A stretch of DNA of 43,583 nucleotides from a phage, in assembly GCA_012646105.1 (NCBI GenBank), contig GCA_012646105.1_4328.1, one strand, 5' to 3'. Below the pieces are notes generated by a model. That model did not search any database. It was not told the origin of the DNA and saw only the letters and a program-made list of their open reading frames with translations. Positions 5,919 to 43,583 of the stretch are shown piece after piece. Position numbers and translations under genes: made by a program. Each line of letters opens with the position of its first letter. Within the stretch, counting starts at the first letter, position 1.

Positions 5919-8255
5919 TTAATACCCCGGCTGATTTCGTGTAGCCCGGCGGGACTTGGAGATTGCACTGTTGCTGTCTTGTAACGCCGCCGATACTGTT
6001 TCGCTGATGATAACACGTAACCGCCCTTCGTCGTCACGCTCTGTAACGGCAGAATCGACACGTCCGGTGGTGTTGTTGACGATTGTCACGCTGTCACCGC
6101 CTGACTTGTTGCCGTTCTCACCCATAATCTGGCGCATCTGTTCCGCGGTACGTACGCGTGACGCCCCCGCAGGCATAATAACTTCCGGCTTGTTACGTTC
6201 GGCGATAGTGGATAGCTGGCCTGCGGCTAAGTTACCGCCCTGCTCACGGGCCGAACGAATTTTGCCTATGTTTGCAAGACCCGCAGCTACCGCTGCGGCT
6301 GCCGCTACAGGCCCAAGTACCCAGCCGACAATAGGAATAGCGGACGCTGATTTATAAGCCTCAATAGCGGAGGTGTATGTGGCGATGGTGGCCTGAGCAA
6401 TGGCAAACGCTTTGTACGCAGTAGACGCTTCGCCAAGCGACGATTTAATGTTATCTGCCATCATTCCGAAAGCGTTACCTGTAGCATTGGCGCGCTTCAA
6501 AGCATACTGGTCGTTTATAGCATTAACCGCGGCCTGGTACTGTTCCTCGTTAATCAGATTCTGTTCGCGGTATCGGTCCGCAACGTCCAGTTTTTGTTGT
6601 TCCTGAATTTCCAGAAGCTCAAGCTCGGCGGCATTCTGGCCCATAATCTGTGCCATGAAGTCTTCACCTTTCTGGTTCTTCTCCTGCCGCTCTTTCTCGC
6701 GCTTAGCGAGTTCTTCCTGACGTGCGGTGTCCGCCTCTAGCATAATCTGCGTCTTGGCGTTTTCGTATTGCTGGTCGCTAAGAAGCTGATTGCCGTAAAA
6801 CTCCTGTAGCTTGGTTAACTGCTGTTCCTGGTTGGCTTCTATTTTCTGGAATACATCATCATTGAGATGAATAGACTGGTAGTAGAAATCCTCAGCGGCT
6901 TTCTTCTGGCGCTCGAATGCATCCGCAGCTTTCTTAGCGGCTTTTGCGCCAGCGCTACCATCTTCAGACCCGCCGCCGATACCAGTTACCTTAAATTTAC
7001 TAAGCCCTTCTTCCTTAGCGGCTTCTTTGTCGATGTCATATGCCGCGCGTTTAAGCGCGACGATATTTTGCTGAGCCTCCACCTGTTCGCGGAAACTTTT
7101 ACGTGTCAGGTCCGCAACATCGCGCTGAGTATCCAGTGCCATCCCCAGCTGGAAGTTAATATTTTTTGCTACGTCTACGGATTCCCCTGGTGTGAAGGCG
7201 GCCTTAACCAGCCGACCGGCATCCTGCGCCCCTTCAACCATATCCTCAAAGAAGCGCTCCATCGCGGTAAATTCTTCCGCGATGAAATCGAGCGCATCGG
7301 CGGCTGATTCCGCTATGGTTGTCGCCGTTTGTTCGCCGCTATCCGTGATACTTTTGCTACTAAAATCCCAAAGCTCATTTAGCCCGTTTATCGCATCACC
7401 AACGAAGCCAAACGCAGCGTCGAACGACATCTCTATAGCGCTTCCTACTTCTGACGCGATGTCGCCCCACATACGCATCTCAGCGGCAAGCTCACCAGAC
7501 GCTACCTGTGCGTTAAGTTCCTGGATTAAATCATCGATGTACCGGATAGGTTCAGCAAGAGCACCAACATCAAGGCTGGTAGCCAGTGTCATTTTTAACT
7601 GCGACCAAGAATCGCTTGCACTGGCTATAGCCCCGTTGAGTGTGTTGGCCTGGTCCGCCATAGCCCCCGCGAAGTTTACGTTACCAATATTGAGCAGGTA
7701 TTGCTCAATATCGGCAGCGCTCTTCTTAACCACCGTAGTAGTGCCCTGGAACGTGAATTCAACATCGTTTTTGTTCTGCTTGGCCTTGATACCAAATTCT
7801 TTAAGACGCTCGAATTCAAACGTACTGGCGTCCGCAACGGCCTCAATCATCTGATTCAGGTCTTTACCCATAGCAGCGGCGGTGTTTCCGTAGGAACGCA
7901 ACGCTTCTTCTGACGGTGTAAGACCAAGCGCCACAAGTTTACGGAATCCCTCTACCGCCTGTTCAAGGCCATACGGAGTGTCGCGCGCGAAGTCTTGCAG
8001 GATGCTTAACGCCTGTCTTGCACCCTGCGTGCTTCCGGTTAGTGTTTTCAGGCTGGCGGACATCTTGTCCAGTTGCCGTTGGGATTCTACCAGTTCCTGT
8101 GCGGCCTTGTACGCGGTAGCGGCGACGATGGAAGCGAGGCCCGCTACCGCAGCTCCGGCTACTTTTGCGGACTTGGAAAGGTTATCAAGACGGTCTGATG
8201 TAGCTTTCGCGCCTTGCTCTGATACTTTTACAACTAAACTAGCCACATCAGCCAT
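5919..8255 (-). CDS. tail length tape measure protein (778 aa)
   Basis: long alpha-helical/coiled-coil protein with Ala/Gln/Glu-rich repeats, N-terminal region typical of tape measure proteins, preceded by chaperone pair. Confidence 0.85.
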   Translation of the reverse strand: MADVASLVVKVSEQGAKATSDRLDNLSKSAKVAGAAVAGLASIVAATAYKAAQELVESQRQLDKMSASLKTLTGSTQGARQALSILQDFARDTPYGLEQAVEGFRKLVALGLTPSEEALRSYGNTAAAMGKDLNQMIEAVADASTFEFERLKEFGIKAKQNKNDVEFTFQGTTTVVKKSAADIEQYLLNIGNVNFAGAMADQANTLNGAIASASDSWSQLKMTLATSLDVGALAEPIRYIDDLIQELNAQVASGELAAEMRMWGDIASEVGSAIEMSFDAAFGFVGDAINGLNELWDFSSKSITDSGEQTATTIAESAADALDFIAEEFTAMERFFEDMVEGAQDAGRLVKAAFTPGESVDVAKNINFQLGMALDTQRDVADLTRKSFREQVEAQQNIVALKRAAYDIDKEAAKEEGLSKFKVTGIGGGSEDGSAGAKAAKKAADAFERQKKAAEDFYYQSIHLNDDVFQKIEANQEQQLTKLQEFYGNQLLSDQQYENAKTQIMLEADTARQEELAKREKERQEKNQKGEDFMAQIMGQNAAELELLEIQEQQKLDVADRYREQNLINEEQYQAAVNAINDQYALKRANATGNAFGMMADNIKSSLGEASTAYKAFAIAQATIATYTSAIEAYKSASAIPIVGWVLGPVAAAAAVAAGLANIGKIRSAREQGGNLAAGQLSTIAERNKPEVIMPAGASRVRTAEQMRQIMGENGNKSGGDSVTIVNNTTGRVDSAVTERDDEGRLRVIISETVSAALQDSNSAISKSRRATRNQPGY

Positions 8256-8607
8256 CGTTTCTACCCTCGAAAATAGCGTCTAAGCTCATGATGATGTCGG
8301 ATTCAAACATGCCTATATTCTGGCCTGAAACGGCGCTGTACGCCACTAAATCCGACCATCTTAACTGTTCGCGCGGGTACATCTTGATGCCATCATCGTC
8401 CACTCGGCGGGTGAATTTGATTTCCCTGTACTTCTCGAAGGTGGTTAATAGCTCAGGGGGGCATTCTGGCCCGGTGTCCTGCGTTGCTTCCGGCGCGTCT
8501 TGCATAACCCCCATAGCAATTAGCGCGGCTTTATGCCCGTCGGCGATACTGTCAAACTCCCGCCGTTTGTGGCGGGTTATGAAGTTCCAACGGGCAAACT
8601 GGAGCAA
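8248..8607 (-). CDS. tail assembly chaperone, second ORF (gpT-like; TTG start or -1 frameshift extension of upstream ORF)
   Basis: ORF in -1 frame relative to 8613..9029, begins at its stop codon, overlaps tape measure start by 8 nt. Confidence 0.5.
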   Translation of the reverse strand: MLQFARWNFITRHKRREFDSIADGHKAALIAMGVMQDAPEATQDTGPECPPELLTTFEKYREIKFTRRVDDDGIKMYPREQLRWSDLVAYSAVSGQNIGMFESDIIMSLDAIFEGRNDG

Positions 8608-8612
8608 CGCGT

Positions 8613-9029
8613 CTACTTTTCCTGCAATTGGCGAAGCTGTTCGTTATGGAAAACAACAACATGTTCAGCTAGACGTTTATATTGAGAGAAAAGAGTATTC
8701 AGGTTCTCTTTATTAAATTCATCGTCGAGACTCCAACCGTTAACCAGTTCAAGTGCTAACTGGCGGTTAAGGTCCGTCGCGGCGTCTTCCATCTTAATGT
8801 TGTATTCCGAGAAATCTTTCAGTTCCTCGCATTTATCACGAAGCGGTTTCAATTTACCTAATGCTGCTCGGTACGCCAGGGTAAACGCCCTCATAGCTTT
8901 AACGGCAACGTCGGCATCGGGGGAGACAACGTTAAGCCATTCTCCTGAATCGGTGCCGTCTTTCAGCGGGATTGGCATACGGGCGCCTTTTTCGGCCTCA
9001 GCTTCGTAATAAAAATCAGAAAGTTTCAT
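8613..9029 (-). CDS. tail assembly chaperone (gpG-like, 138 aa)
   Basis: acidic small protein directly upstream of the second chaperone ORF and tape measure; conserved G/GT position. Confidence 0.55.
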   Translation of the reverse strand: MKLSDFYYEAEAEKGARMPIPLKDGTDSGEWLNVVSPDADVAVKAMRAFTLAYRAALGKLKPLRDKCEELKDFSEYNIKMEDAATDLNRQLALELVNGWSLDDEFNKENLNTLFSQYKRLAEHVVVFHNEQLRQLQEK

Positions 9030-9205: not shown

Positions 9206-9397
9206 ATGACAAGCATTACTATGTTCTTCTTAATCATTATTGTTTTAGTTTATTTTATTCCGTTTCTCGTGGCGCATATGCGCAACCATAAAGCTAAATT
9301 AGCGATATTCATGGCTAATCTGTTTCTCGGTTGGGTTCTGCTGCCGTGGGTATTTATTTTAATCTGGGCGTGCAACTCGAATGTCAAAGAGAAGTGA
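9206..9397 (+). CDS. small inner-membrane protein resembling superinfection-immunity family proteins (63 aa, 2 TM)
   Basis: two hydrophobic helices; motif VAHMRNH...AIFMANLFLGWVLLPW matches my recollection of the Imm_superinfect family; opposite strand to flanking tail genes. Confidence 0.55.
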   Translation: MTSITMFFLIIIVLVYFIPFLVAHMRNHKAKLAIFMANLFLGWVLLPWVFILIWACNSNVKEK

Positions 9398-9435: not shown

Positions 9436-10566
9436 ATGGCCCAGAAGAAAATAACCGACGAACAGTTGCAGGAAGAATTGAACGCCGGGATGAAGAATAT
9501 CGACATCGCCCGTAAATACGGCATCTCAGACCGCGTTATTCGTATTCGTAAAGCAAAACTAGCTAAGAAAGGCGTAGGCCACGGGCGTGACGTCAGTCAC
9601 CTTGTGCCAGACGGCTACAAGATTAAAGGCACGTCGTCACTGGTGGACGAGTTCGGCAACACTAAGTTGCAATGGGTTAAGACCGACACTGACGCCGAAC
9701 GTCAGGTCGAGTTGATGAAAGCCGTAATCGAGGGCATGAAGTCAGAGATTAAACCGGTTGCGCCTGTTAAAGCGGCCCGAGCCAAACGTGACGATAAACT
9801 ACTCAATCTTTACACTGTATCTGATTTCCATCTCGGTATGCTGGCCTGGGCTGACGAGAGCGGCGACGACTGGGACATGAGGATTGCGGAAGACCTGTTC
9901 TCCCTCTGGTTCGATGCGGCGTTTCAGAAAGCGCCAGATGCAGGAACAGGGGTTATTAACCTGCTGGGCGACCTTGCGCACTTCGATAGTCTGGATGCCG
10001 TTACCCCAGCGAGCGGTCATATTCTTGACGCTGACACGCGCTACCAGAAACTGGTCCGCTACATGATTCGTATGGTCCGCCGTGTTGTCGATATGGCCCT
10101 CGTTAAGCATAAAAATGTTCGCCTGCTTATCGTGCAAGGGAACCACGACGAAAGTGGAATGATTTGGTTAGCTGAGATGTTCAGTACGCTGTACGACAAT
10201 GAGCCTCGTGTGTTCGTCGATACGTCACCGGATGTTTACAAGATGGTGCAACACGGCAAAACTACGCTGTTCTTCCATCACGGGCATAAAGCACGATTCG
10301 ACGCTATTGAACCGGTTATGATTGCCAAGTTCCGCAAAGCGTTCGGCGAAAGCGAGTACAGCTACGCCCATGTAGGGCACCTGCACCATCAGAAGATTGT
10401 AGAAAGCCGTAACATGATTGTTGAACAACACCGCACATTAGCGGCAAAAGATGCCTACGCCTCCCGCGGCGGATGGATGTCGGGCCGTAGCGCAAACGTA
10501 ATTACTTATAGCGCCGAATATGGCGAGATCGCACGTTTAACGATTTCACCGGAGATGCTGGGATGA
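9436..10566 (+). CDS. N-terminal HTH fused to calcineurin-like metallophosphoesterase (376 aa)
   Basis: HTH-like segment aa 18-45; phosphoesterase motifs D130-x-H132, G178-D179, G235-N-H-D238, H281-H-G-H284, G314-H-L-H317; RBS AGGAAG upstream. Confidence 0.7.
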   Translation: MAQKKITDEQLQEELNAGMKNIDIARKYGISDRVIRIRKAKLAKKGVGHGRDVSHLVPDGYKIKGTSSLVDEFGNTKLQWVKTDTDAERQVELMKAVIEGMKSEIKPVAPVKAARAKRDDKLLNLYTVSDFHLGMLAWADESGDDWDMRIAEDLFSLWFDAAFQKAPDAGTGVINLLGDLAHFDSLDAVTPASGHILDADTRYQKLVRYMIRMVRRVVDMALVKHKNVRLLIVQGNHDESGMIWLAEMFSTLYDNEPRVFVDTSPDVYKMVQHGKTTLFFHHGHKARFDAIEPVMIAKFRKAFGESEYSYAHVGHLHHQKIVESRNMIVEQHRTLAAKDAYASRGGWMSGRSANVITYSAEYGEIARLTISPEMLG

Positions 10567-10793
10567 CTTCAAAATACAACCGCACAATGACAAACACTCA
10601 CGGAAGCACTATGACCGTAGACGTTTATGATGTGCTACGTGCCTTCGACATCCGTGACCCTGCGCTACAGCATGCATTGAAGAAACTATTGTGCATGGGC
10701 TTGCGGGGGCACAAAGACACCGGAACCGACTTAGCGGAAGCAATTGAAAGTCTGGAGAAGTTACGGGAGTACCGGAGTAACATTGATGAGTGA
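10563..10793 (+). CDS. hypothetical protein (76 aa), translationally coupled to phosphoesterase gene
   Basis: ATGA start/stop overlap with 9436..10566. Confidence 0.5.
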   Translation: MTSKYNRTMTNTHGSTMTVDVYDVLRAFDIRDPALQHALKKLLCMGLRGHKDTGTDLAEAIESLEKLREYRSNIDE

Positions 10794-10800
10794 GGCTGTA

Positions 10801-10962
10801 ATGAAAACAATATACGTAATCCGTGTATATGATGAAGAATGGGACGAGTGGGTTGATATTTATGCCGTAGGTAGTAAGGAAGAGGCCTCTAAAGAGATGG
10901 CAGAACGGAGTGACCGAGGTCAGTTAACTAACTTCTACGAAATGCCATTTAAAAGTGAGTAA
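10801..10962 (+). CDS. small acidic hypothetical protein (53 aa; alternative ATG at 10786)
   Basis: GAGG 5 nt upstream of ATG 10801; acidic stretch DEEWDEWVD; followed by terminator hairpin. Confidence 0.45.
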   Translation: MKTIYVIRVYDEEWDEWVDIYAVGSKEEASKEMAERSDRGQLTNFYEMPFKSE

Positions 10963-10965
10963 GAA

Positions 10966-10985
10966 AAGGCCCCGAAAGGGACCTT
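10966..10985. terminator. bidirectional stem-loop terminator between plus-strand cassette and major tail gene
   Basis: AAGGCCCC-GAAA-GGGACCTT hairpin (G-U wobble on minus-strand RNA) flanked by T-rich runs on both strands. Confidence 0.5.
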
Positions 10986-10989
10986 AGTT

Positions 10990-12162
10990 TTATGCGTAGG
11001 TGATACGCTGGATAACGATAGACGACTGGTACTGATTGCCTGTGGACTGCCCTTCTATACTCTGGGTTATTGATTCCGGGCCAGATATTTCTGGGGTGAC
11101 CGCCGTAAGCTCTGCGCGTTTCAGACTAAAAGACATGGCCCCATTTACCCCCGCCAGAATAGAGTTAATCTCCACCTGCTGCTCGTTGATAAACTTCTGA
11201 ATCATCACCATGTCGTACAGCTTGCCGGAGATGGAGAAGGTATTAGCCGCGCGACCACGTTCCACGAACGCAACGCTACTGTTGCCTAGTTCGAACTGAG
11301 CAGATGCGCCGTTGTCGTTGGTGATGGTCAGAGTATCGCAACGCAACGGCGTAGAACCGTCGAACACAGACACATCTACAGATGAGAACGGCTCGTCAGT
11401 GAACGTAACCCGGGAGAAGTCGGAACCTGCTGGCGGCTCGGTGAGAATTTCCTGACTCAGACCGATGAACGGGAAGCTGCCTGTCACCATCGCGTTCACG
11501 GCCTGCTCGATAGTAAAACCGGAGATTTCCACGCCTTTGGTCAACATGTACGCGCTAGGGTTCCCGCACTGTCCTTTGAACCATGTCAGGATAGAGAACG
11601 TCTTACATGCGTTACCTGTTTCCAGTTTATCCCCGGTCTTAGCCTTACTGGTTTTTGTCTCTGTCGTCAGCGTGTGCTGAATGCCAGCGCCTGTTACTAC
11701 GAGCGCCTCGACCGCGGTCACGATAAACGGTTTTGCGTTGTCGCCGGTTAAGTCGGTGAATGCAATCAGGTCGCCAACCTCTACACCGTCAGCAATGAAG
11801 CTACCGGCAGCGCGGGTGAATGTTTTACCTGCTGGAGCGACCGTAATTTCAGCACCCGTAATCTCTACCCCATCCTGCCACGTAGAAGTCATAGCACCCG
11901 CAAGGAAATCATCCTGGCTACGTGAGCTAAGTTCGATGGCGTACTCCCCGCTAACCTGTTTGTTACCGGTGCGGATGGATGTGGTTTCTCTGCTGCCGTC
12001 GAGTTCGTTGGAAGTCAGCGCATCACGGGTTACCGCGGGAACACCGCCGGTGTTACGCAACGGCGACCATACCGGGTTACTTGGTGTTACGCCCGGGGTA
12101 ACTTCCGCCACATAGAATTGCGCGGTATTCGCGCCCTTAAAAGGAGTTGTAGCCATATTCAC
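10990..12162 (-). CDS. major tail (tube) protein (390 aa)
   Basis: size, Thr/Ser/Gly-rich beta-type composition, position upstream of chaperones, terminator directly downstream. Confidence 0.6.
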   Translation of the reverse strand: MNMATTPFKGANTAQFYVAEVTPGVTPSNPVWSPLRNTGGVPAVTRDALTSNELDGSRETTSIRTGNKQVSGEYAIELSSRSQDDFLAGAMTSTWQDGVEITGAEITVAPAGKTFTRAAGSFIADGVEVGDLIAFTDLTGDNAKPFIVTAVEALVVTGAGIQHTLTTETKTSKAKTGDKLETGNACKTFSILTWFKGQCGNPSAYMLTKGVEISGFTIEQAVNAMVTGSFPFIGLSQEILTEPPAGSDFSRVTFTDEPFSSVDVSVFDGSTPLRCDTLTITNDNGASAQFELGNSSVAFVERGRAANTFSISGKLYDMVMIQKFINEQQVEINSILAGVNGAMSFSLKRAELTAVTPEISGPESITQSIEGQSTGNQYQSSIVIQRITYA

Positions 12163-34116: not shown

Positions 34117-34389
34117 ATGATTTACCAACTCTACCGAGCCGTAGACAGGCGGGATAGCACAGAGGCGTTATGGCTGTTGCGCGCTCCGTCCGGTGCGCAC
34201 CAGATGGAAGAGATGGCGTACTTAGGCAAAGTACCACGGCCTAAAGATATAGGCCGTCACGTGTCGCAGATTAAGCGCACGACTTTCGCCAAACCTGACT
34301 TTTATGTCTTCGAGTCGATGTATGGATGGGCGATGCATTGCCACCACCAGACACGACATTTAATTGACCAGTGGGAGAGCAGAGTATGA
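34117..34389 (+). CDS. hypothetical protein (90 aa)
   Basis: ATG 34117 with RBS GAGGG; ORF-track start 33979 overlaps upstream gene. Confidence 0.5.
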   Translation: MIYQLYRAVDRRDSTEALWLLRAPSGAHQMEEMAYLGKVPRPKDIGRHVSQIKRTTFAKPDFYVFESMYGWAMHCHHQTRHLIDQWESRV

Positions 34390-34883
34390 ATTGGCATGAA
34401 GTTTTTGACTATGACCCTGATACCGGTAAATTATTTTGGAAAATAAGTCCGTCAAAATCTGTAAAAATAGGGCAAGAAGCTGGCAGTACGAGGGAGGACA
34501 ACGACGGGAGTGAATTTAAAATACTACGTTTTAACGGGACTACTAAACTTATCCACCACGTAGTTTGGGAGATGTTTAACGGGCCGATAGCGCCGGGGGA
34601 AGTAATTCGTCATAAAAATAAAGATAGAACTGATAACAGAATAGAAAATCTTATAAAAATGCGCCGAGGTAGTATCGCACACGGCACCAACATACGGACG
34701 GACAATACTTCAGGGGTTAAAGGTGTTGGGTTTCATAAACGCTACGGTAAGTGGGTCGCGAGAATTTATGTAGACGGCAGGCCGATTTATTTAGGGGCCT
34801 ACGATAAGTTAGAGAACGCGGCTAAGGCTCGTAGGCAAGCCGAGATTAAATATGGGTTTACAGTTAACGGGGCTGAGAAATGA
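34386..34883 (+). CDS. HNH endonuclease with AP2-type DNA-binding domain (free-standing homing endonuclease)
   Basis: HHVVWEMFNGPIAPGEVIRHKNKDRTDNRIENL HNH motif; GVKGVGFHKRYGKWVARIYVDGRPIYLGAY AP2-like. Confidence 0.75.
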   Translation: MNWHEVFDYDPDTGKLFWKISPSKSVKIGQEAGSTREDNDGSEFKILRFNGTTKLIHHVVWEMFNGPIAPGEVIRHKNKDRTDNRIENLIKMRRGSIAHGTNIRTDNTSGVKGVGFHKRYGKWVARIYVDGRPIYLGAYDKLENAAKARRQAEIKYGFTVNGAEK

Positions 34884-36896: not shown

Positions 36897-37052
36897 ATGA
36901 TTTTCTGTAAGCACGTATACCGCTATATAAAACCGCTTCCGTGGTACGCAGATGAGTACCGGGCCGGGTACAGGCATGTGTGGATTTGCCGCGATTGTAT
37001 GAAAATAAGATTAAGCGAAACGAAGGTACTGGATTTAAGGAAAAAGAAATGA
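36897..37052 (+). CDS. small zinc-ribbon-like protein (51 aa) coupled to polymerase
   Basis: hand translated (MIFCKHVYRY...ICRDCMK); RBS AAGGG; ATGA overlap with polymerase start. Confidence 0.4.
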   Translation: MIFCKHVYRYIKPLPWYADEYRAGYRHVWICRDCMKIRLSETKVLDLRKKK

Positions 37053-39298
37053 GCTATTTATACCTGGACTTTGAAACATTCTCCGAAGCCGATTTAAAGA
37101 AAGTCGGTTCCTACGCTTACGCCGAACACCCAACTACAGAAGTGCTTATCTGTACGTATGCTTTTGACGACGAGCCTGTACAGGTATGGGATTGCACCGA
37201 CGGCAGCGACATGCCGGGAGATTTGCACCGCGCCTTGCGCCGCCTGGTTAAGCCAAACAGCCGCACCAAGATGGTGTGGCACAACGGCTCAATGTTCGAT
37301 AGGCTCGTCATGAAGCACTGCTGGGGTTTTGATATTCCCGTAAGCAACACCATTGATACGATGATTTGGGCGTTTCGCCACGCGTTGCCTGGTTCACTTG
37401 ATGCGTTGTGCGAAGTGCTGGGCGTATCCGCAGACAACGCGAAAGACAAACGAGGCAAGGCGCTGATTCAGCGTTTTTCTAAACCTACACCGAAGAACTA
37501 CAAAATCCGCCGATACACCGCCGAAACGCACCCGGATGAGTGGGCGCTGTTCATCAAGTACGCCGTGAGCGACATCACTGCGATGCGTGAAGTGTTCCAC
37601 AAGCTGCCGCGTTGGGGTAACTCAGAGTTCGAGGACCGTGTACTGGAACTGGACCAGTTAATCAACGACCGCGGGTTTAAGGTTGACGTCGCACTGGCGG
37701 AAGCCGCAATTGAAGCAGTAGAGAAACACAAAGCGCAGTTACAGGAAGAAGCACAGCGCAAATACGGCGGCTCGCTTACGGGTAAAGACTTCCTACCGAT
37801 TCTGCGTGAACTTGCACCAGCTCACCGCATCCACAATGCGCAGAAGTCGACGCTTAACGACCTGCTGGCAGATGATGATTTGCCCGACGACGCCCGAACG
37901 ATTATCGAGATGCGCCTCGGAGCCGCGTCCACCGCTTCGACGAAATATAACCCGCTGCTGTTAGGTCGCTCGTCTGACGACCGTCGCCGTGGTTGCATTC
38001 AGTATGGCGGGGCAAAGCGTACATTACGGTTTGCGGGTAAAGGCTTCCAGCCACAGAACCTCGCACGCGGGTACTATCACGACGACCCGAAGAATAAAAA
38101 GAAGAAAGTACGTTATGACTGGATGTCAGAGAAGGACTGGTGGAGAGTAACGCACCCATTGTCCTACGGAATTGACCTGCTGTTTAAAGGCCGTGCGCAT
38201 CGCCGTTTTGATGTGGCAAAACTGACAGCATCTACGGTGCGTAGCTGCATCATACCGGAAGTGGGGCATAAGTTTGTCGTCGCTGATTACTCTAACGTCG
38301 AAGGCCGCGGGTTGGCATGGCTGGCGGGAGAAGAAACCGCTCTCGATACGTTCCGTGCGGGATTGGATATTTACTGCGTAACCGCGGGTAAGATGTTCGG
38401 CATGGATCCTGATTACATTCTCGAAAGCCGTAGTGACCTGCGCCAGATTGGTAAAGCCTGCGAACTTGGCCTCGGCTACGCAGGCGGTGTCGGAGCTTTC
38501 GTTCAGTTTGCTAAGAACCTCGGCTTAAACCTGGTTGATATGGCAAAAACAATGGACGGGACTTTCCCTGACCACATCTGGGCCGCTACCGCACGTGGGT
38601 ATGAGTGGGCACGTATTCAGGAAGCCAAGAGACCGCCACGTCCTGGTGAAAAAGATGACCGACCATCATATATTCTTGATAAGAAAGTGTGGCGCACCTG
38701 CGACGCTATCAAGCGCATGTGGCGCGAGTCTCACCCGGAAACAGTAGCTTTCTGGCGAGATATTGAAGATGCAGCTATGGCGGCTATCCGTAATCCCGGT
38801 AAAGAGTTCACTGCGGGGCCGCGCGGCGTTAAGTTTTCGCGCAGCGTAGAGACAGACAACAACGGCAACAAAGTCGCTGGTTGGTGGTTGCGCATGACGT
38901 TGCCGTCGGGTCGCGTTATGTCCTACCCTGGCGTAGGGTTAAGTGTGTCGAAAGAGACCGACGAAGACGGAAAGGTATCTACTAACGTGCGCATCAAGTA
39001 CCAGGGCGAAAATCAGTTAACACGACAGTGGGGCTTCCAGTACACCTACTCCGGTAAACTGGTGGAAAACTGCACTCAGGCGCTGTGCCGTGATTTGCTG
39101 GCGAATGCGCTGCTGAACGTAGAAGCAAACGGCTACCCGATTGTACTTCACGTACACGATGAGATTATCTGCGAGACACCCGATTTACCGGAATACAATG
39201 TAGCTGAACTGGAAAAATTAATGTGCGCGTTGCCTGAGTGGGCTGAAGGGTTCCCTCTTGTAGCAGAAGGTCAGGAGTTAAAACGCTATGCCAAGTAA
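37049..39298 (+). CDS. DNA polymerase, family A, with 3'-5' exonuclease domain
   Basis: exo motif YLDFETFS, motif B RQIGKACELGLGYAGG, motif C HVHDEI; ATG 37049 with AAGGA RBS (ORF-track start 36980 is GTG). Confidence 0.85.
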   Translation: MSYLYLDFETFSEADLKKVGSYAYAEHPTTEVLICTYAFDDEPVQVWDCTDGSDMPGDLHRALRRLVKPNSRTKMVWHNGSMFDRLVMKHCWGFDIPVSNTIDTMIWAFRHALPGSLDALCEVLGVSADNAKDKRGKALIQRFSKPTPKNYKIRRYTAETHPDEWALFIKYAVSDITAMREVFHKLPRWGNSEFEDRVLELDQLINDRGFKVDVALAEAAIEAVEKHKAQLQEEAQRKYGGSLTGKDFLPILRELAPAHRIHNAQKSTLNDLLADDDLPDDARTIIEMRLGAASTASTKYNPLLLGRSSDDRRRGCIQYGGAKRTLRFAGKGFQPQNLARGYYHDDPKNKKKKVRYDWMSEKDWWRVTHPLSYGIDLLFKGRAHRRFDVAKLTASTVRSCIIPEVGHKFVVADYSNVEGRGLAWLAGEETALDTFRAGLDIYCVTAGKMFGMDPDYILESRSDLRQIGKACELGLGYAGGVGAFVQFAKNLGLNLVDMAKTMDGTFPDHIWAATARGYEWARIQEAKRPPRPGEKDDRPSYILDKKVWRTCDAIKRMWRESHPETVAFWRDIEDAAMAAIRNPGKEFTAGPRGVKFSRSVETDNNGNKVAGWWLRMTLPSGRVMSYPGVGLSVSKETDEDGKVSTNVRIKYQGENQLTRQWGFQYTYSGKLVENCTQALCRDLLANALLNVEANGYPIVLHVHDEIICETPDLPEYNVAELEKLMCALPEWAEGFPLVAEGQELKRYAK

Positions 39299-42676: not shown

Positions 42677-43583
42677 TTACCAGTCAGTGTAAACGATTAA
42701 TCCACGCATTAAGTTTCTATATATTGTTGTGGTGCTGGAAGGAAAGTTGAATTGTATTGTAGACATTTTACCTTTTACAGGTGATGCAATAGCACTCTTC
42801 ATCCCAAACTTAAATGGCGCTGCCGAAGTGATAGCGGTATAAGTTACGTCCTCTCCGAAGTATCCATCCTCTGTAGCCCCCATTAAGACTGCACCATTTA
42901 TAGATGCACCACCATTCAGTGCGATCATCTGAACCCAAGCGCTAAAGCCTTTCCTATACCTGATAGTGGTAGCAAAAGCTGACGATGCACCTTTGAATGC
43001 AATACCAGACACTTTTACATCGGTTTGCGTGGTTGTATGGTCACTATTGGCAGAAGCCGTAATTATACGGGTAGGCCATGCATTATTGGTAATCAAACCA
43101 TCGCTACTATTTGGGTCTTTAGGCATAGCCTTTTGGAGTAAACCACCTAAACTCCAATGAGTTCCTGATGTACGCCCACCTCCAAATAGATAAGCCTCAG
43201 TAACGAGGGGTTTAACATAGGTTTTCGCAGCGAGTCCTTGTACCAGTTCCCTAAACCTTTGTGTATCTCGTATTCTTGCTGTGATCCCAGCATCACCGAC
43301 ACCATCCCATACAAAAGCACCAAATTCACCATTGCCGGCTTGTCCGAAGATATCACCAGCTTTTTGCATCTGCTCTACGGTGCCAAAGTTTGCACCTGAA
43401 AAGGCTGCTACTACAGGGATAACACGCGTAGTATTAAGCATCTGCATTAAGCCGCCATAGTCTAAGCGCATATGAATCAAGTCCTCTTCTACTGCCTCGT
43501 CAGTAGTAACACCATCCCGTGCTAATGAGTATGAGTTACACAGGACTATGTCATATTTGGTTGAGTAGCACTGTTCGAATGGA
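42677..43583 (-). CDS. 5'-truncated ORF (at least 302 codons), possible C-terminal part of tailspike or other tail protein
   Basis: frame open to the window end with no stop; ORF-track start 43480 is only the first TTG; ends at bidirectional terminator. Confidence 0.45.
   Translation of the reverse strand, partial: PFEQCYSTKYDIVLCNSYSLARDGVTTDEAVEEDLIHMRLDYGGLMQMLNTTRVIPVVAAFSGANFGTVEQMQKAGDIFGQAGNGEFGAFVWDGVGDAGITARIRDTQRFRELVQGLAAKTYVKPLVTEAYLFGGGRTSGTHWSLGGLLQKAMPKDPNSSDGLITNNAWPTRIITASANSDHTTTQTDVKVSGIAFKGASSAFATTIRYRKGFSAWVQMIALNGGASINGAVLMGATEDGYFGEDVTYTAITSAAPFKFGMKSAIASPVKGKMSTIQFNFPSSTTTIYRNLMRGLIVYTDW

Follow-up and report, generated by a model that had tools for sequence, protein, structure and literature searches.

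Positions 9,436 to 10,566 of the phage contig GCA_012646105.1_4328.1 (GenBank assembly GCA_012646105.1) encode a protein in which an N-terminal helix-turn-helix (HTH) is joined to a calcineurin-like metallophosphoesterase (MPE). The contig, 43,583 nucleotides long and hereafter called the window, is essentially the complete 43.6-kb genome of a Kagunavirus (Guernseyvirinae). Weighing sequence, predicted structure and gene neighbourhoods, we lean somewhat towards the view that this MPE protein is a two-metal phosphodiesterase tethered to DNA, that it belongs to the nuclease branch of its superfamily, with Mre11, SbcD, T4 gp47 and PolD-DP1 as its nearest relatives, and that it would act on DNA as a self-tethered nuclease independent of Rad50. 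The HTH would bind DNA and take over the tethering, a Rad50/SbcC ATPase would not be needed, and the MPE core would hydrolyse DNA phosphodiester bonds, either at ends or in single-stranded or structured DNA.

The open reading frame (ORF) is a real gene, with an ATG start, a GAGGA Shine-Dalgarno sequence 7 nt upstream, and 376 codons followed by a stop. It is under strong purifying selection: compared with two relatives of about 91% nucleotide identity, dN/dS is 0.04 and only 13 amino-acid changes are found. The gene is not new, being an ordinary member of a catalogued and extremely common phage family. NCBI holds a 100% identical protein, named only 'winged helix-turn-helix domain-containing protein', and 98%-identical proteins occur in K1ind1 and many assemblies. 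The match to PHROG_704 ('DNA repair exonuclease') runs from end to end, residues 3-375 lying on profile positions 1-389 of 390 (E 4.8e-167). Homologues were detected by tblastn in 2,038 phage records, among them Kagunavirus, Jerseyvirus, T1-like Drexlerviridae, Webervirus, Vibrio, Rhodobacter and Campylobacter phages and roseophages, and an exhaustive HMMER scan gave 4,645 clusters at E<=1e-3 (1,146 at E<=1e-30), mostly of 370-420 residues. The phage T1 homologue is ST16/gp16 (377 residues), gp26 of the Erwinia phage Era103 is annotated as 'similar to p16 protein of phage T1', and the gene was reported in 2026 from 508 of 522 Drexlerviridae phages (PMC13164509). Throughout the PHROG_704/T1 gp16 family the architecture is the same (HTH, hairpin-helix module and MPE core, about 375-400 residues) and we see no structural difference from our protein; what differs is where the gene lies: Guernseyvirinae have it in an antisense island within the tail operon, Drexlerviridae where the replication genes end and directly ahead of the lysis cassette.

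Family members are recorded under very different names: DNA repair exonuclease, phosphoesterase, phosphatase, kinase-phosphatase, recombination endonuclease subunit, DNA polymerase II small subunit and winged HTH protein. The PHROG_704 name is an annotation that rests on no experiment. The polymerase label is a misnomer: PolD DP1, the archaeal 3'-5' proofreading exonuclease, does have an MPE fold, but this phage has no PolD large subunit, and its own polymerase is of family A with a 3'-5' exonuclease domain. A scan with NCBIfam returned nothing useful and no family-level name for the protein.

The MPE core carries the five motifs of the superfamily (DxH, GD, GNH[DE], H, GHxH) on a beta-sandwich MPE fold. 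Motif I is D130-F-H132, motif II G178-D179 with H182 (GDxxH), motif III G235-N-H237-D238, motif IV H282 and motif V G314-H315-L-H317, so that all seven metal ligands (D130, H132, D179, N236, H282, H315 and H317) are present together with the His-Asp pair H237-D238. Conservation was counted over 150 divergent representatives of clusters at 50% identity. D130 and D179 are kept in 149 of them, H132, N236, H237 and H282 in 148, H317 in 145, H182 in 144 and D238 in 140; H315 is kept in 137, with Asp in 8 more. Two further segments are conserved, a loop at 187-202 (TPxSGHxLDxDxR; T190-P-x-S-G-H195-x-L-D198-x-D200-x-R202), modelled with low confidence, and residues 334-347 after motif V (TLAAKDAYASRGGW; T334-L-A-A-x-D339-A-Y-A-x-R-G-G346-W/Y). 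Pfam gathering scores were nevertheless missed, at 21.6 against 27 bits for Metallophos_2 (E 2e-4) and 18 against 21.5 bits for Metallophos (E 4e-3), and the Pfam Metallophos models reach E<=0.01 in only 11 of 124 homologues; the family is too divergent for them.

An earlier note on this stretch, made by a model from the letters alone, had proposed the architecture of an HTH followed by a calcineurin-like MPE, and profiles, the AlphaFold model and the fold search bear it out. A script check found every motif residue that it listed (D130/H132, G178-D179, G235-N-H-D238, H281/H282/H284 and G314-H-x-H317) at its position. For motif IV it had left three histidines in play; with H282 kept in nearly all representatives, the ligand is H282, not H281 or H284. 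Loss of metal ligands on alignment, which it named as grounds for giving up its reading, was not observed, the ligands being kept in 137 to 149 of the 150 representatives. Its exclusion of Ser/Thr phosphatases was also right: the lambda NinI-type Ser/Thr protein phosphatases (PPP) have the same superfamily fold and are likewise phage-encoded, but their motifs GDxHG, GDxVDRG and GNHE are absent from the MPE protein.

Which branch of the superfamily the protein belongs to was approached by fold and by profile. An AlphaFold2 model built on 124 diverse homologues (pLDDT 82.9, pTM 0.73) consists of three parts: a three-helix HTH, a beta-hairpin with a long helix, and an alpha/beta sandwich core at 119-370. 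Its fold scores were highest for Mre11 (15.1), S. aureus SbcD (14.9) and the PolD DP1 exonuclease (14.8), followed by MJ0936 (13.8), LpxH (13.5), GpdQ (12.4), Rv0805 (12.1) and PP5 (9.0). Among predicted viral structures, the protein lies within a large phage-only MPE clade, and viral SbcD homologues are reached only at about E 1e-7.

For the profile comparison, the family profile was aligned by hhalign with two controls, one of 7 sequences (T4 gp47 homologues and E. coli SbcD) and one of 5 sequences (CpdA-type phosphodiesterases). The gp47/SbcD profile was matched with 93% probability (E 3.5e-7, 183 columns), and all five motifs were in register, as was the segment after motif V, where TLAAKDAYASRGGW faces TLTAGDENDPRGFW of gp47 and TLxAxD...RGxW is common to both. 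The CpdA-type profile, in contrast, was matched with 12% probability (E 0.0024, 110 columns) over motifs III-V only. This comparison agrees with the fold ranking. The protein shows both the nuclease-type motifs of Mre11/SbcD/gp47 (DxHLG, GDxxH/D, GNHD, GHxH) and significant profile similarity to them. Alignments by hhalign with single sequences (T4 gp47, E. coli SbcD, CpdA and lambda NinI) were uninformative (P 0.017-0.21), and PDB sequence searches, whether started from the protein itself or from three profiles, yielded no significant MPE match. The sole MPE structures reached by a profile, T. maritima Mre11/SbcD (E 0.5-1.4) and a P. putida 'nuclease MPE' (E 3), were non-significant. The alignment with T. 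maritima Mre11, itself non-significant, sets GDLAH182 on GDLLH; the histidine of GDxxH in Mre11 (H52 in P. furiosus, H59 in yeast) is required for exonuclease activity, which is here a lead only.

The earlier note had taken GNHD together with GHxH as a mark of class III cyclic nucleotide (cNMP) phosphodiesterases and of Mre11/SbcD, and had considered either degradation of host signalling nucleotides or action on DNA ends. The class III signature, D-(X)n-GD-(X)n-GNH[ED]-(X)n-H-(X)n-GHXH, is present, yet it is also found in Mre11/SbcD/gp47 and other MPEs, and a pattern common to many MPE families does not discriminate; at the level of profiles the protein does not fall in class III. By fold, the class III enzymes E. 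coli CpdA and M. tuberculosis Rv0805, as well as GpdQ, rank below the nucleases, and CpdA-type proteins have no HTH and a motif II of the form GDLxQD, lacking the histidine of GDxxH. Action on DNA ends is the option favoured by the fold ranking and the hhalign comparison, and degradation of signalling nucleotides is not supported. An anti-defence phosphodiesterase that degrades cAMP, cUMP, cCMP, cGAMP or cyclic oligoadenylates, its HTH being an Aca-like autorepressor, is in our estimate very unlikely. Besides the far weaker match to the CpdA-type profile, no NCBIfam, Pfam or PADLOC model assigns the protein to a phosphodiesterase family (the PADLOC defence and counter-defence models gave no match at E<=0.1), the gene is near-universal in whole phage families, unlike the patchy spread usual for anti-defence genes, the viral signal-degrading enzymes known from the literature we found have other folds (2H, metallo-beta-lactamase), and the neighbouring genes elsewhere belong to DNA metabolism.

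The presence of the HTH is certain; its LuxR/GerE subtype is not, relatives matching several HTH families. Pfam GerE aligns with residues 14-45 below its cut-off (15.7 against 23.5 bits, E 0.012), and the family profile reaches a GerE structure at E 0.0023, while the homologues match HTH_1 (78 of 124), HTH_50 (48 of 124) and others such as HTH_28, HTH_8, Cro, GerE and NUMOD-like models. The N-terminal region is kept in 145 of the 150 representatives, variants of 420-480 residues carry two HTH modules, and the domain is interchangeable in evolution, having been exchanged for other HTH types among relatives. The hairpin-helix module that follows is even more constant: it is found in 147 of the 150 representatives, with G65 and W80 invariant across 124 sequences, and a Campylobacter phage homologue without the HTH still keeps it.

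If the HTH were itself the functional part, the protein would be a transcription factor with its MPE as a sensor, or else a NinI-like Ser/Thr/Tyr phosphatase. NCBI names it only as a winged-HTH protein, a weak match to PHROG_836 ('late transcriptional activator') covers residues 5-36, and many phages and prophages have the gene at the edge of their lysis/late genes, all of which would suit a regulator. Given an active site kept as described above and the missing PPP motifs, we hold this explanation to be extremely improbable.

Several points weigh against a self-tethered nuclease, some of them bearing on its kinship with Mre11, SbcD and gp47. These proteins possess a C-terminal capping domain, which the MPE protein lacks: it ends 59 residues after motif V, only core strands are modelled at 320-370, and gp47 and SbcD run more than 120 residues past the aligned region. 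Sequence identity to them is 12-17%, with non-significant sequence-profile matches, and the MPE protein carries instead an N-terminal HTH and hairpin-helix module that they do not have. No Rad50/SbcC/gp46 partner was detected in the 43.6-kb window, where no large ORF is SMC/ABC-like, and ten related loci likewise showed none beside the gene. The protein cannot be counted as Mre11/SbcD proper, since both the capping domain and the partner are missing; on sequence grounds, it represents a family of its own, distantly related to the nuclease branch and resembling it in predicted action. Furthermore, the fold scores of the non-nuclease MPEs MJ0936, LpxH and Rv0805 come close behind those of the nucleases, the two control profiles contained few sequences, and homology ultimately links all MPEs. 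Autoregulation, rather than substrate tethering, can also be the task of an HTH fused to an enzyme. The gene adjoins a superinfection-immunity gene in a variable accessory island, a setting typical of host-interaction genes. Finally, our literature search found no functional paper, and located no enzymology or genetics, for any member of the family.

Action on DNA by a stand-alone phage MPE has, nevertheless, a functional precedent. The MPE of cluster A mycobacteriophages (A10ZJ24 gp48) has phosphodiesterase activity, damages host genomic DNA and is needed to overcome host defence gene expression (PMC12287305). Like the MPE protein, gp48 is phage-encoded and has the five motifs; its first motif already lies at residue 10 (mutant D10G), however, so that neither an HTH nor a hairpin module precedes it. 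The ten organism names that recur most often in the 2,038 records matched by tblastn do not include Mycobacterium phages. A second precedent is T4, whose record has gp46/gp47 as required for recombination and host-DNA degradation.

Gene neighbourhoods in other phages bear on the function as well. In T1-like phages and Webervirus the MPE gene follows genes for a helicase, a VRR-NUC nuclease and a Dam methylase and precedes the lysis cassette; in prophage late operons it comes last, following the genes for holin, endolysin and a GNAT acetyltransferase. Two contigs have a dGTP_diPhyd_N gene downstream of it, adjoining in one and three genes away in the other, and in Campylobacter phage F352 a DNA ligase gene is immediately upstream. 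In three unrelated lineages, represented by RP180, a Webervirus and the podovirus Era103, the MPE gene is followed by a gene for a HAD_PNKP phosphatase-domain protein and then by one for a P-loop protein, and in Era103 an ATP-dependent ligase comes next after both. The first partner matches Pfam HAD_PNKP (PF25109) above threshold (E 3e-19 and 5e-17) and has a DxDGT motif; the second is a kinase-like P-loop protein related to T1 p62 and annotated as deoxynucleoside monophosphate (dNMP) kinase or RFC/ATPase. From their sequences, the pair looks like a split polynucleotide kinase/phosphatase (PNKP) or a nucleotide-salvage pair. In Drexlerviridae without an SH3 gene, the next gene is most often a polynucleotide kinase, then a dNMP kinase, a pair taken by the KanT1 authors as nucleotide supply (PMC13164509).

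These partners raise the possibility that the MPE is an end-healing phosphoesterase. It would clear broken RNA or DNA of 2',3'-cyclic phosphate, 3'-phosphate or further blocks at the 3' end and work with a split polynucleotide kinase/phosphatase and a ligase, like the MPE module of bacterial Pnkp, repairing damage by host nucleases such as anticodon nucleases. The recurrence of the two partner genes directly after the MPE gene in unrelated lineages, the Era103 ligase and the frequency of the same partners in Drexlerviridae all speak for it, and calcineurin-like enzymes have been named in phage neighbourhoods of RNA-end clean-up (PMC9503650). However, no HAD_PNKP, kinase or ligase gene is found anywhere in the window, and the PNKP-like genes of T1 are far from gp16. 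Records call the P-loop partner a dNMP kinase, the pair has been read as nucleotide supply, the HAD domain already provides a 3'-phosphatase, and an HTH fits duplex DNA better than tRNA. We consider end healing unlikely. A reading in which the family is not a DNA nuclease but a widespread counter-defence MPE, which destroys cyclic (oligo)nucleotide signals or heals RNA cut by anticodon nucleases and uses the HTH as an Aca-like autorepressor, is in our view quite unlikely; were it true, it would bring a new fold to the viral countermeasures that degrade signals or repair RNA, in a near-core gene of T1-like and Jersey/K1G-like phages.

Returning to a DNA-tethered nuclease, the recurrent neighbours from DNA and nucleotide metabolism count in its favour, as does the persistent, near-core status of the gene in Drexlerviridae and in the wider set of phage records. 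Its role would lie in phage DNA metabolism, as host-DNA breakdown for nucleotide salvage and/or end processing for recombination-dependent replication and repair. The former fits the adjoining dNMP-kinase-like and phosphatase genes in relatives, the latter the ligase and PNKP-like neighbours. The protein would be expressed with the early/middle genes on the same strand, not with the tail genes around it.

Three observations concern the neighbouring genes themselves. The genes annotated 'polynucleotide kinase' beside the MPE gene in RP180, a Webervirus and Era103 (6128-7167 in locus L001, 5166-6226 in L005 and 5169-6244 in L009) in reality encode the HAD phosphatase domain of PNKP. A GNAT acetyltransferase gene is directly 5' of the MPE gene in three independent prophage or metagenomic contigs (L012, 7579-8004; L014, 5578-5997; L017, 5554-5988). 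An HNH endonuclease gene is directly 3' of it in T1 (L011, 42028-42510), Jerseyvirus Ent1, Vibrio phage K137 and a metagenomic contig (positions of the last three in Table 1). These HNH genes are probably homing endonucleases aimed at this conserved stretch of genes. A role of the MPE as a terminase accessory nuclease, which such neighbours might suggest, was considered and set aside: the HNH genes look like scattered homing endonucleases, T1 having several paralogues elsewhere.

In the window, large ORFs of the − strand match tail, tape-measure, chaperone, tail tube, head, portal, terminase and endolysin families in PHROG and Pfam, and those of the + strand match helicase-primase, a DUF2800 PD-(D/E)XK exonuclease, an Enc34-type single-stranded DNA-binding protein, family A DNA polymerase, methylase and helicase. 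The MPE gene belongs to a + strand island of four genes (Table 1) that interrupts the tail operon of the − strand; the tail assembly chaperones (8248-9029) flank it on one side and the tail tube gene (10990-12162) on the other. The 4.5 kb around it are 93% identical to Escherichia phage fBC-Eco01 and match 473 phage records.

Table 1. Features of the MPE gene and its island in the window, and HNH genes that follow the MPE gene in further loci (positions of the latter refer to the locus named).
Feature	Position	Strand	Basis
Coding sequence of the HTH-MPE protein	9436..10566	+	ORF/translation; PHROG_704 member; phage T1 gp16 homologue
N-terminal HTH DNA-binding domain, LuxR/GerE-like (about residues 5-50)	9448..9585	+	model helices 8-16, 21-28, 32-43; profiles
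Family-specific beta-hairpin and helix module (about residues 58-105)	9607..9750	+	strands 61-70, 76-85, helix 87-104; conserved G65, S67, W80-V-K82
Binuclear MPE core (residues 119-376), no C-terminal capping domain	9790..10563	+	motifs I-V
Superinfection immunity membrane protein, 63 residues, two transmembrane segments; first gene of the island	9206..9397	+	Imm_superinfect E 8.3e-14 (above threshold); phrog_1039 E 2e-23
76-residue ORF, start overlapping the MPE stop (ATGA)	10563..10793	+	phrog_2452 E 2.4e-36
53-residue ORF, last gene of the island	10801..10962	+	67% identical to 52-residue ORF of fBC-Eco01
G+C-rich hairpin between the convergent island and tail tube gene	10966..10985		terminator-like site in scan
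HNH gene following the MPE gene, locus L003	5171..5671		
HNH gene following the MPE gene, locus L006	5241..5750		
HNH gene following the MPE gene, locus L013	9231..9947		

The same island is found in fBC-Eco01, RP180 and Jerseyvirus Ent1, and the layout is common to Guernseyvirinae. The superinfection-immunity gene holds the same position in fBC-Eco01 and Ent1, and what follows the MPE gene differs from phage to phage, being small ORFs, an HNH endonuclease, a Rha/Ant-like protein, or the HAD phosphatase and kinase. The hairpin that closes the island is likely a bidirectional terminator, its equivalent in fBC-Eco01 being annotated as a terminator on both strands. A promoter scan upstream of the island gave no sigma-70-like site, and the sole promoter call for it is a PHIRE prediction in the fBC-Eco01 record. 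The earlier note had judged such an enzyme unusual inside a tail module, which was overstated: the gene sits in an opposite-strand accessory island with its own immunity gene and terminator, conserved in Kagunavirus and Jerseyvirus. Its location is a conserved feature of the lineage, on the same strand as the replication genes, and does not speak for a tail role. A structural or tail function was rejected on account of the opposite strand, the terminator and the place of the gene among replication or lysis genes in other phage families.

Of the small ORFs, the one of 53 residues has no PHROG, Pfam or PADLOC match. The 76-residue ORF is 97% identical in fBC-Eco01 and 91% in Ent1 (gp21), and stands alone in both. 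It aligns only with the C-terminal 70 or so positions of several PHROG profiles of 210-250 positions (phrog_2452, of 235 positions; phrog_17613, 'ATPase'), and may represent a domain found sometimes on its own and sometimes as part of a longer protein. The idea that it is what is left of the P-loop kinase or HAD partner was rejected, since it has no BLAST similarity to them and its stand-alone form is conserved in Kagunavirus and Jerseyvirus.

Elsewhere in the window, the family A DNA polymerase ORF (36980-39298, + strand) is matched in its middle part, at residues 490-584, by PHROG_93 'endonuclease' (E 1.6e-13), and this may be an inserted module like a homing endonuclease. A homing-type endonuclease with HNH_3 and AP2 domains (34371-34883, + strand) lies in the replication module between a PHROG_3127 gene and that of the DUF2800 PD-(D/E)XK exonuclease. 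At the end of the window, a 267-residue ORF (42677-43480, − strand) has no PHROG match at E<=1e-5.

As a single discovery the gene matters little: its protein is already in GenBank in identical form, and the family of which it is a typical member is catalogued. The family, on the other hand, merits attention: more than 2,000 sequenced phages carry it and about 4,600 sequence clusters represent it, it is near-universal in Drexlerviridae, and its active site is near-absolutely conserved. The present analysis narrows the question of its substrate, DNA or small nucleotides. If the protein is indeed a self-tethered nuclease of the Mre11 type that works without Rad50, small phages would obtain from a single polypeptide an activity that processes ends or degrades host DNA, and the long-known breakdown of host DNA by T1-like phages, not yet mapped to a gene, would have a candidate in this family.

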